Positions 11,185 through 12,065 of a stretch of DNA of 24,000 nucleotides are shown in pieces. Position 1 is the first letter of the stretch, and each line of letters begins with the position of its first letter. This DNA is from Cellulosilyticaceae bacterium (GTDB lineage: Bacteria > Bacillota > Clostridia > Lachnospirales > Cellulosilyticaceae), in NCBI GenBank assembly GCA_051646925.1, contig JBOFDK010000038.1, forward strand, positions 4,161 through 28,160, given 5' to 3'. Under the pieces are notes generated by a model. It was not told the origin of the DNA, did not search any database, and was given only the letters and a program-made list of their open reading frames with translations. The translations under genes were made by a program, and so were the position numbers.

Positions 11185-11724
11185 ATGTCAGGATTTTCTG
11201 ATTTCCTTTTCGGATGGATGGTAAATGTGGACCCAAAAGCTCTCGTACTAGCCTTCTCAGCACTTGGTGCAGGTCTTGCAATGATTGCAGGTATTGGACC
11301 AGGTATTGGTCAAGGTTTTGCAGCTGGAAAAGCAGCAGAAGCGATGGGTAAGAACCCAGAGCATGGTGGCAAGCCAGCAACGCTTGTTATGTTATTGGGT
11401 GCAGCGGTTGCAGAAACGTCAGGGATTTTTTCTCTTGTCGTAGCAATCATCATGTTATTTGCCAATCCTCTGGTAGGAAAAACTGGAATTGCGCTTGTAC
11501 TAGCATGTTCAGCGCTAGGTGCAGGTCTTGCAATGATAGCAGGTATTGGACCAGGTATTGGTCAAGGTTATGCGGCAGGTAAAGCAGCAGAGGCTGTTGG
11601 AAAGCGTCCGAAGCTTCAAAGTGCTATCGTAAGAACGATGTTACTTGGGCAAGCGGTTGCACAAACAACAGGTATTTATGCGCTTATTATCGCGTTATTA
11701 TTATTATTTGTGAACTTATTCTAA
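11185..11724 (+). CDS. atpE: F0 ATP synthase subunit c, duplicated/fused four-helix form (c1-like)
   Basis: Two complete c-subunit hairpins lie in one uninterrupted ORF. Hairpin 1 is GIGQG...AVAETSGIF. Hairpin 2 is GIGQG...AVAQTTGIY, with Gln at the ion-binding carboxylate position. I prefer ATG 11185 (AGGAGG at 11171-11176, 8-nt spacer) over GTG 11176. Confidence 0.9.
11269..11317 (+). repeat. 49-nt near-identical segment, copy 1 (c-subunit helix-1/GIGQG coding)
   Basis: GCAGGTCTTGCAATGATTGCAGGTATTGGACCAGGTATTGGTCAAGGTT. It differs from the other two copies only at the wobble base of one Ile codon. Confidence 0.9.
11521..11569 (+). repeat. 49-nt near-identical segment, copy 2
   Basis: Same string, with ATA at the variable Ile codon. 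Confidence 0.9.
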
Positions 11725-11780
11725 GCTATAAGCTATAGAATAAAACATACTCAAAAGACTTATTAAGGAGGAAATTTATA

Positions 11781-12065
11781 ATGGAAAATCAAATTGATGG
11801 AAGAGCACTTATTCTTGCATGTTCAGCAATTGGAGCAGGTCTTGCAATGATCGCAGGTATTGGACCAGGTATTGGTCAAGGTTACGCAGCTGGTAAAGGT
11901 GCAGAAGCAGTAGGTCGCCAACCAGAAGCACAATCAGATGTTGTACGTACGATGTTACTTGGGGCTGCTGTAGCAGAAACAACAGGAATCTATGGTCTTA
12001 TCGTAGCAATTATTCTTTTATTCGCTAACCCACTTATTACAAAATACATTAGCTTAATAGGATAA
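11781..12065 (+). CDS. atpE: F0 ATP synthase subunit c, single hairpin, Na+-binding signature
   Basis: 94 aa. It carries GIGQG (Gln) plus AVAETTGIY (Glu, Thr, Tyr) and the GRQPE loop. RBS AAGGAGG. Confidence 0.93.
11835..11883 (+). repeat. 49-nt near-identical segment, copy 3
   Basis: Same string, with ATC at the variable Ile codon. Confidence 0.9.

Follow-up and report, generated by a model that had tools for sequence, protein, structure and literature searches.

Fused and single-hairpin c subunit genes in an F-type ATP synthase operon of a Cellulosilyticaceae bacterium, predicted to encode a Na+ rotor like that of Acetobacterium woodii

Two adjacent c subunit genes in an F-type ATP synthase operon

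Two adjacent genes for rotor subunits of an ATP synthase lie in a 24,000-nucleotide (nt) stretch of DNA from a Cellulosilyticaceae bacterium (GenBank assembly GCA_051646925.1, contig JBOFDK010000038.1, positions 4,161 to 28,160 of the forward strand), which was analyzed as a whole and is called the window below. The first gene codes for a c subunit made of two fused hairpins (c1), one of which has lost the ion-binding carboxylate, and the second codes for a c subunit with a single hairpin (c2). An earlier reading of the letters of this DNA (the original prediction) had described them as rotor genes of the F/V-hybrid type known from A. woodii. Homology agrees with this assignment, as both proteins match the corresponding A. 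woodii subunits in searches against all PDB sequences and both genes are part of a canonical F-type operon. The following features of the two genes are used in the analysis.

11185..11724, + strand: atpE1, fused two-hairpin c1 subunit, 179 amino acids (aa); 4BEM_J match, two PF00137 stretches, continuous open reading frame (ORF)
11413..11415, + strand: GAA codon of Glu77, the retained ion-binding carboxylate of hairpin 1, corresponding to A. woodii Glu79; sequence, alignments and position count
11419..11430, + strand: codons Ser79 to Phe82 of c1 hairpin 1, with Ser for Thr and Phe for Tyr; sequence, same in A. woodii c1, covariation in 109/109 pairs
11662..11664, + strand: CAA codon of Gln160, which replaces the carboxylate of hairpin 2 and corresponds to A. 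woodii Gln162; sequence and alignments
11781..12065, + strand: atpE2, single-hairpin c2 subunit, 94 aa; 4BEM_A, E = 3.8e-40, and 1YCE, E = 6.3e-32

The c1 frame is unbroken from GTG 11176 or ATG 11185 to the stop codon at 11722-11724. The in-frame fusion of two c hairpins that had been claimed for this region was found both in the list of ORFs and in the raw sequence, with neither a stop nor a change of frame between the hairpins. The start is best set at ATG 11185, because AGGAGG at 11171-11176 precedes it by an 8-nt spacer and homologs begin with MSGF (their N-termini read MSGF... or MSGI...). Two ATP-synt_C stretches (Pfam PF00137) were detected in the protein, hairpin 1 extending to approximately residue 97 and hairpin 2 beginning at approximately residue 98. 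Read from the DNA, hairpin 1 has the motifs GIGQG, a GKNP loop and AVAETSGIF, and hairpin 2 has GIGQG, a GKRP loop and AVAQTTGIY. The residues of the Na+ motif are Gln43, Glu77 and Thr78 in the first hairpin and Gln127, Gln160 and Thr161 in the second; Phe82 is encoded by TTT at 11428-11430. The original prediction was thus right about the carboxylate kept in hairpin 1, the Gln in hairpin 2 and the KNP and KRP loops. It had also singled out Phe in place of Tyr and KNP in place of RQP. Both are present, but they are not peculiar to this locus, since A. woodii c1 has exactly the same GKNP and AVAETSGIF; they characterize the c1 family.

Window c1 aligned with the c1 subunit of the A. woodii F1FO ATPase (4BEM chain J, 182 aa) over residues 5-179 with E = 1.2e-65. 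In this alignment Glu77 falls on A. woodii Glu79 and Gln160 on Gln162, the A. woodii numbers being residue counts along the 4BEM_J alignment. When the hairpins were aligned one by one with I. tartaricus (Ilyobacter tartaricus) c and with A. woodii c2 and c1, the Glu and the Gln fell into one column, that of I. tartaricus Glu65, and Gln160 therefore occupies the equivalent carboxylate position, as had been predicted. Its CAA codon is one nucleotide away from GAA.

Between the two hairpins of window c1 the identity is 66%, and with the c2 of the same operon they share 69% and 78%. At the DNA level, the helix-1 coding parts of the three hairpins (11235-11360, 11487-11612 and 11801-11926) share 80-81% identity over 126 nt and include a nearly identical core of approximately 50 nt, gcaggtcttgcaatgat.gcaggtattggaccaggtattggtcaaggtt, whereas the helix-2 coding parts share 64-73%. 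Gene conversion between hairpins and strong codon constraint are possible causes of the high helix-1 identity.

The c2 gene follows after a spacer of 56 nt and has its own ribosome-binding site, AAGGAGG at 11765-11771. Its product is, as the original prediction had it, a c subunit of 94 aa with the Gln/Glu/Thr/Tyr set and a GRQPE loop; the remaining motifs are GIGQG and AVAETTGIY, and Glu66 is GAA at 11976-11978. Gln33, Val64, Glu66, Thr67, Thr68 and Tyr71 lie in the same columns as the Na+ ligands of I. tartaricus, so that c2 has the full set of Na+ ligands. The best PDB matches were A. woodii c2 (4BEM_A, E = 3.8e-40), Fusobacterium c (3ZK1, 8e-33) and I. tartaricus c (1YCE, 6.3e-32), and over the hairpin c2 is 85% identical to A. 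woodii c2.

Distribution among related genomes

In a scan of one genome per GTDB species, at least 445 loci had a relative of these genes (possibly including single-hairpin genes), and the best 80 were analyzed together with the window, giving 81 loci. A fused c gene with at least two hairpins was found at the same position in 80/80 related species-level loci, complete isolate genomes among them. In all 80 it is followed by a single-hairpin c gene with the pattern Q.RQP.ETT.Y (KQP in L061). The layout of the window, a two-hairpin c1 with Glu in the first and Gln in the second hairpin (E-Q in the notation used below) and one c2, is that of the majority (64 of the 81 loci). Two single-hairpin c genes occur in two loci, in one case after a c1 (L053, the A. 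woodii layout) and in the other after a four-hairpin c gene (L073). The remaining 15 loci have at least three hairpins in a c gene, or two fused c genes. The original prediction had pointed out that, unlike in A. woodii, only one single-hairpin c gene is present. This is true of the window, but the majority of loci, and also Clostridium aceticum, have the same arrangement, and it is neither unusual nor a sign of a functional difference.

The locus most similar to the window comes from a Cellulosilyticaceae metagenome-assembled genome (MAG), with 77% DNA identity over the operon and 93% identity of AtpD. In the protein database, at least 1451 clusters were counted at E <= 1e-10, and their sources name them only "ATP synthase F0 subunit C"; a look-up of the c1 sequence gave no exact match. 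Among the matches listed, Niameybacter massiliensis (92-93%), Cellulosilyticum sp. (87%) and relatives of Epulopiscium have the closest c1 proteins with a named source. The Cellulosilyticaceae lineage is a saccharolytic group and is not known as an acetogenic one. For Ca. Epulopiscium viviparus, a Na+-driven F1Fo enzyme has been proposed from the c subunit sequence (PMC10756260); in the main text of that paper the terms "woodii" and "c-ring" do not appear, and "hybrid" refers to genome assembly only.

The hybrid rotor genes are thus widespread in Clostridia, in at least 80 species-level genomes and beyond the acetogens in which this rotor was first described. The common name of the proteins conceals a rotor that, by prediction, is heteromeric, coupled to Na+ and short of one site, and a correct annotation bears on the ion/ATP ratio used in bioenergetic models for Cellulosilyticaceae and the giant relatives of Epulopiscium.

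Evidence for a single old duplication and the predicted location of the dead site

We compared the hairpins of the 81 loci and A. woodii by pairwise identity. The nearest neighbor belonged to the same class for 85 of 86 first hairpins, for all 86 last hairpins and for all 85 single c subunits, the classes being defined by pairwise-identity and nearest-neighbor statistics rather than by a tree. This coherence indicates one old duplication, shared with A. woodii, and not repeated fusions. Altogether 85 fused c ORFs were examined, and the carboxylate position of the last hairpin is Gln in every one of them.

In the I. tartaricus ring, each Na+ site lies between two subunits, one of which contributes Gln32 and Glu65 and the other the carbonyl oxygen of Val63 and Ser66 (PMC2359735). 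We infer that Tyr70, one helical turn from Ser66, is on the same face as Ser66. We examined the 109 intramolecular pairs of successive hairpins (k and k+1) in the 85 fused ORFs. Hairpin k has Tyr and Thr in 6/6 pairs in which hairpin k+1 has Glu, and Phe or Leu together with Ser in 103/103 pairs in which hairpin k+1 has Gln or Thr. The rule holds in 109/109 pairs, and the reverse pairing shows no such rule. These counts are of sequences and not of independent events: the independent tests come from the E-Q-E-Q, E-Q-Q and E-Q-Q-Q variants (the residues at the carboxylate position of successive hairpins), which represent few lineages.

Because of this covariation, Phe82 and Ser79 of the window c1 appear to belong to the same dead site as Gln160, inside c1. 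The Phe that the original prediction saw in hairpin 1 is there, and its description is refined: the covariation assigns it to the dead site rather than to that hairpin's own live site. The pairing runs in the same direction as in NtpK of Enterococcus hirae, whose hairpin 1 contributes Thr64 to a site with Glu139 and Gln110 from hairpin 2. The outward-facing ligand sides of c1, Q...E of hairpin 1 and TT..Y of the last hairpin, are conserved in 85/85 ORFs.

Relatives with more hairpins

Several related loci have a c gene with more than two hairpins (around position 6000 of the locus). Three hairpins are encoded in L052, L055, L056, L057, L074 and L078, four in L049, L058, L061 and L073, and six in L051; the gene in L067 has at least five and is cut by the contig end. 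All of these genes are followed by a normal c2. The patterns are E-Q-Q, E-T-Q, E-Q-Q-Q, E-Q-E-Q and E-Q-E-Q-E-Q. Isolates and complete genomes are represented, including Clostridiaceae bacterium 35-E11 and Acidaminobacter hydrogenoformans DSM 2784, and among protein clusters such proteins of 260-288 aa were found in Crassaminicella indica and Alkalibacter rhizosphaerae. L056, which has a three-hairpin c gene of the E-Q-Q pattern, comes from a close relative of the organism studied here, with an AtpD 88.6% identical to that of the window. As the repeats have diverged from each other, these genes did not arise by duplication during assembly. In the literature searched, outside of which lay the review by Brandt & Mueller 2015 (Biol Chem 396:1031), we found no account of F-type c subunits with 3-6 hairpins.

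Two other arrangements were observed. In L034 (5998-7080) and L040 (5992-7074), two tandem two-hairpin c1 genes precede a single c2, and KRP is replaced by KRE in the loop of the second copy. In two Marinisporobacter MAGs (L064, 2543-4172, and L068, 3352-4164), an ORF of 216 aa is followed by a three-hairpin c gene (E-Q-Q), and the pair is located approximately 2 kb upstream of a normal atp operon that has its own two-hairpin c1 and c2. Judged by position and size only, the 216-aa ORF could be a second subunit a, and the pair may form an alternative stator/rotor module.

It is conceivable, though we hold it only tentatively, that the window c1 represents the base state of a family whose members differ in how many hairpins are fused (2 to 6) and how many sites in each polypeptide are dead (1 to 3). 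The Na+/ATP ratio would then be an evolvable gear set by the dead interfaces in the ring, and not a speciality of acetogens, given its occurrence in the saccharolytic Cellulosilyticaceae/Epulopiscium lineages.

Predicted rotor and alternative explanations

We consider it very probable that c1 and c2 are orthologs of A. woodii atpE1 and atpE2/3 and form an A. woodii-like Na+ rotor with a mixed ring. Gene structure, orthology, ligand conservation and operon context are seen at the locus itself, and Na+ coupling and the mixed ring are what homology predicts from them. In A. woodii, the ring has nine c2/3 subunits to one c1 (PMC9171764) and 10 Na+ sites in 11 hairpins (PMC9171764; PMC7793690). By analogy, many c2 and probably one c1 would assemble in one membrane ring, in which each interface between neighboring hairpins would be a Na+ site. 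One hairpin would supply Gln and Glu, and the preceding hairpin the backbone carbonyl, the Thr/Ser hydroxyls and Tyr. The interface inside c1 would be dead, with Gln160 instead of Glu and, on the side of hairpin 1, Phe82 instead of Tyr and Ser79 instead of Thr. The two outer interfaces of c1 would be canonical: the Glu77 site of hairpin 1 would be completed by Thr/Thr/Tyr of a neighboring c2, and Thr161, Thr162 and Tyr165 of hairpin 2 would complete the site of the next c2. One turn of a ring with n hairpins would thus move n-1 Na+ past the stator arginine in subunit a. The Na+ flux through subunit a would turn the ring, and three ATP would be made per turn. The dead interface would therefore lower the Na+/ATP ratio, which in A. 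woodii becomes 10/3 = 3.3 and not 11/3. Co-assembly in one ring, the stoichiometry, Na+ as the coupling ion and the physiological direction are all parts that we infer.

Besides the few lineages behind the covariation, several points weigh against this assignment. DNA does not reveal the make-up of the ring, its stoichiometry or its coupling ion, and the organism is known here from its genes. Both c1 and c2 have strong ribosome-binding sites, and the sequence gives no sign of a mechanism that would keep c1 scarce relative to c2. The window comprises only 24 kb, and a second ATPase may be encoded elsewhere in the genome. Window c1 is only approximately 65% identical to A. woodii c1, its hairpin-1 loop is one residue longer than the A. 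woodii GKNPTKSN-DIV, and it ends in ...FVNLF, where A. woodii c1 ends in ...ANPF.

The alternative that survives best keeps the hybrid ring but gives it more than one c1, so that in this lineage the stoichiometry would depart from 9:1 and the Na+/ATP ratio would be lower still. The two genes belong to one transcription unit, each with a consensus ribosome-binding site and a spacer of 8-9 nt, and there is one c2 gene here versus two in A. woodii; the tandem c1 genes of L034 and L040 and the c genes with 3-6 hairpins also show that evolution can change how many dead sites a ring has. However, the sole measured case is 9:1, and because c2 and c3 of A. woodii are identical proteins (PMC7911925), the number of genes alone says little. 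We regard more than one c1 per ring as unlikely.

Less probable still is that the enzyme is coupled to H+, or that c1 stays outside a homomeric c2 ring and has some other role, such as assembly or regulation. Prediction of the coupling ion from motifs has erred before, as the C. aceticum ATPase was first said to have no Na+ motif (PMC7911925), and it would be applied here to an enzyme known only from the genes of its organism. Against this, all Na+ ligand positions of I. tartaricus and A. woodii are kept in c2 and on the live sides of c1, and both characterized enzymes with the c1 and c2 layout (A. woodii and C. aceticum) are Na+-dependent. Moreover, A. woodii c1 is physically part of the ring (4BEM), and the conservation of the outward ligand sides of c1 in all 85 ORFs makes sense only if c1 completes sites with c2. 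Such a role for c1, or H+ coupling, thus seems quite improbable.

It can practically be dismissed that c1 is no functional four-helix protein but an artefact or a pseudogene in decay, arising when a sequencing or assembly mistake, or the disappearance of a stop codon, merged tandem c genes. Tandem near-repeats are indeed prone to misassembly, and the three hairpin segments share the 126-nt stretches described above, but the ORF is continuous, 80/80 independent species-level genomes have this fusion together with the loops typical of each hairpin class (KNP or similar for hairpin 1, KRP for the last one), the orthologous 182-aa chain has been crystallized (4BEM_J), and hairpins that are only 66% identical are not a recent copy.

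The A. woodii-like Na+ rotor with a mixed ring is therefore the explanation that we prefer.

The operon and other genes of the window

The locus is a complete canonical F-type ATP synthase operon with the gene order atpZ-I-B-E1-E2-F-H-A-G-D-C. The products of atpZ and atpI and subunits a, b, delta, gamma and epsilon were assigned by family models, and subunits alpha and beta by operon position. Besides the two c genes, the operon has the following features.

9839..10096, + strand: atpZ-like small membrane protein, 85 aa, first gene of the atp cluster; PF09527 ATPase_gene1, E = 1.4e-18, TIGR02230 weak
~10071..10406, + strand: atpI, ATP synthase protein I, assembly factor; PF03899 ATP-synt_I, E = 2.2e-11
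10469..11167, + strand: atpB, Fo stator subunit a, 232 aa; TIGR01131, 113.9 bits versus a cut-off of 102.6
12111..12632, + strand: atpF, subunit b; TIGR01144, 92.9 bits, cut-off 65.5
12620..13165, + strand: atpH, subunit delta; TIGR01145, 144.3 bits, cut-off 57.5
13186..14694, + strand: atpA, subunit alpha, 502 aa; operon position only (ORF list)
14724..15590, + strand: atpG, subunit gamma; TIGR01146, 312.7 bits
15616..17007, + strand: atpD, subunit beta; operon position, 93% identical to the matching product of locus L002 over 463 aa
17013..17417, + strand: atpC, subunit epsilon; NF009980, 134.5 bits, cut-off 129
17428..17472, + strand: terminator-like hairpin with a T run, operon end; 20-pair stem, consensus match only

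The start of atpI is uncertain, as the ORF opens at GTG 10011 and an ATG is found at 10071. The ORF of atpD opens at TTG 15496, and ATG 15616 is its likely start. The atpB product aligns with solved a subunits; its stator arginine is conserved, in ...SLSFRLFGNILGG..., and SLSFRLFGNIL is identical to the chloroplast a subunit.

A second terminator-like hairpin (8431-8477, a 20-pair stem and consensus match) lies upstream of wecB (8683..9837), which may be co-transcribed with the atp operon. The promoter scan of the window gave 41 candidates versus 35 +/- 6 expected from shuffled sequence, which is not above chance, and an Rfam scan of the whole window at the gathering threshold detected no RNA family. 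No Wood-Ljungdahl gene cluster was seen in the window; a lone gene of the MTHFR family (7546..8394) is located between a BrkB-family gene and wecB.

Downstream of the operon, three tandem, divergent, paralogous small ORFs of 154, 186/163 and 131 aa are located at 17471-19054 on the - strand. Two of them begin with MSKRYF(R/K)Y, and all three share a C-terminal motif ...IL(D/E)H.(R/K)..L..D..GR... (pairwise E = 4e-5 and 4e-7). The Pfam scan covered the 154- and 186/163-aa ORFs, the 131-aa ORF lying outside it, and gave no match for them; nor did Pfam match the + strand ORFs 541-2169 (542 aa) and 6025-6477 (150 aa). An open frame on the + strand (20444-24000, >1185 aa, no stop before the end of the window) begins with a signal-peptide-like N-terminus, MRKKIALILAIFIWSSIFSG..., and probably codes for a large secreted or surface protein.

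Comparison with known systems

Two other enzyme types were considered and rejected. The N-ATPase (atpDCQRBEFAG) models TIGR03322 and TIGR03306 scored 75.4 and 112.9 versus cut-offs of 130.85 and 302.1; all alt_F1F0 models stayed far below their cut-offs, and the gene order is the canonical I-B-E-F-H-A-G-D-C. A K subunit of V-type or A-type was rejected by the V-type K models, which stayed far below their cut-offs (NF004913, 49.8 versus 211), the NtpK score of 22.5 bits and the F-type operon.

Like E. hirae NtpK (2BL2) and the A1Ao c subunit of Eubacterium callanderi, c1 joins two hairpins in one chain and has a single ion site for each pair of hairpins, an architecture with a lower ion/ATP ratio. 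In NtpK, however, the live site is inside the four-helix bundle (Glu139 and Gln110 with Thr64), whereas the site within the bundle of c1 is predicted to be dead, and V-type and A-type rings are homomeric, unlike the mixed ring proposed here. The match between NtpK and c1 is weak (22.5 bits, E = 8e-4) and the c1 hairpins are 66-78% identical to each other and to the F-type c2 of the same operon; c1 therefore appears to be a separate duplication within the F-type lineage. When the original prediction called c1 V-type-like, this was correct for its architecture but not for its ancestry. According to the literature, Eubacterium limosum has an A1Ao enzyme with a V-type c and not the F-type operon with c1 and c2.

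The ligands of c2 (Gln, Val carbonyl, Glu, Ser/Thr, Thr and Tyr) are those of the c subunits of I. tartaricus and Propionigenium modestum (1YCE) and of Fusobacterium nucleatum (3ZK1). The rings of these three organisms differ in being homomeric, built of single hairpins, with no fused c1 and no dead site.

The c1 followed by a single c2 is also the arrangement of C. aceticum, a member of a different lineage that was compared here by its published description. Its atp operon (CACET_c02130-c02220) has ten atp genes, including c1 (atpE1) and one c2 (atpE2); c1 has Q...ET in hairpin 1 and Q...QT in hairpin 2, and Na+-stimulated ATPase activity was measured in membranes (Wiechmann & Mueller 2021, PMC7911925).

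The closest likeness is to A. woodii. Its c1 also has four helices, with Glu in hairpin 1 and Gln in hairpin 2 in the same columns, and it shares with the window c1 the GKNP loop, AVAETSGIF and identical stretches of 13 and 14 letters; the operon order is also the same. The two differ in host, which is Cellulosilyticaceae-like here and belongs to Eubacteriaceae in the case of A. woodii, and in the number of single-hairpin c genes, which is one in the window and two (atpE2 and atpE3) in A. woodii. The original observation was therefore correct, and it concerns a rotor type that is already well described, first in A. woodii, and of which the motifs, the layout and the form with a single c2 have been published.

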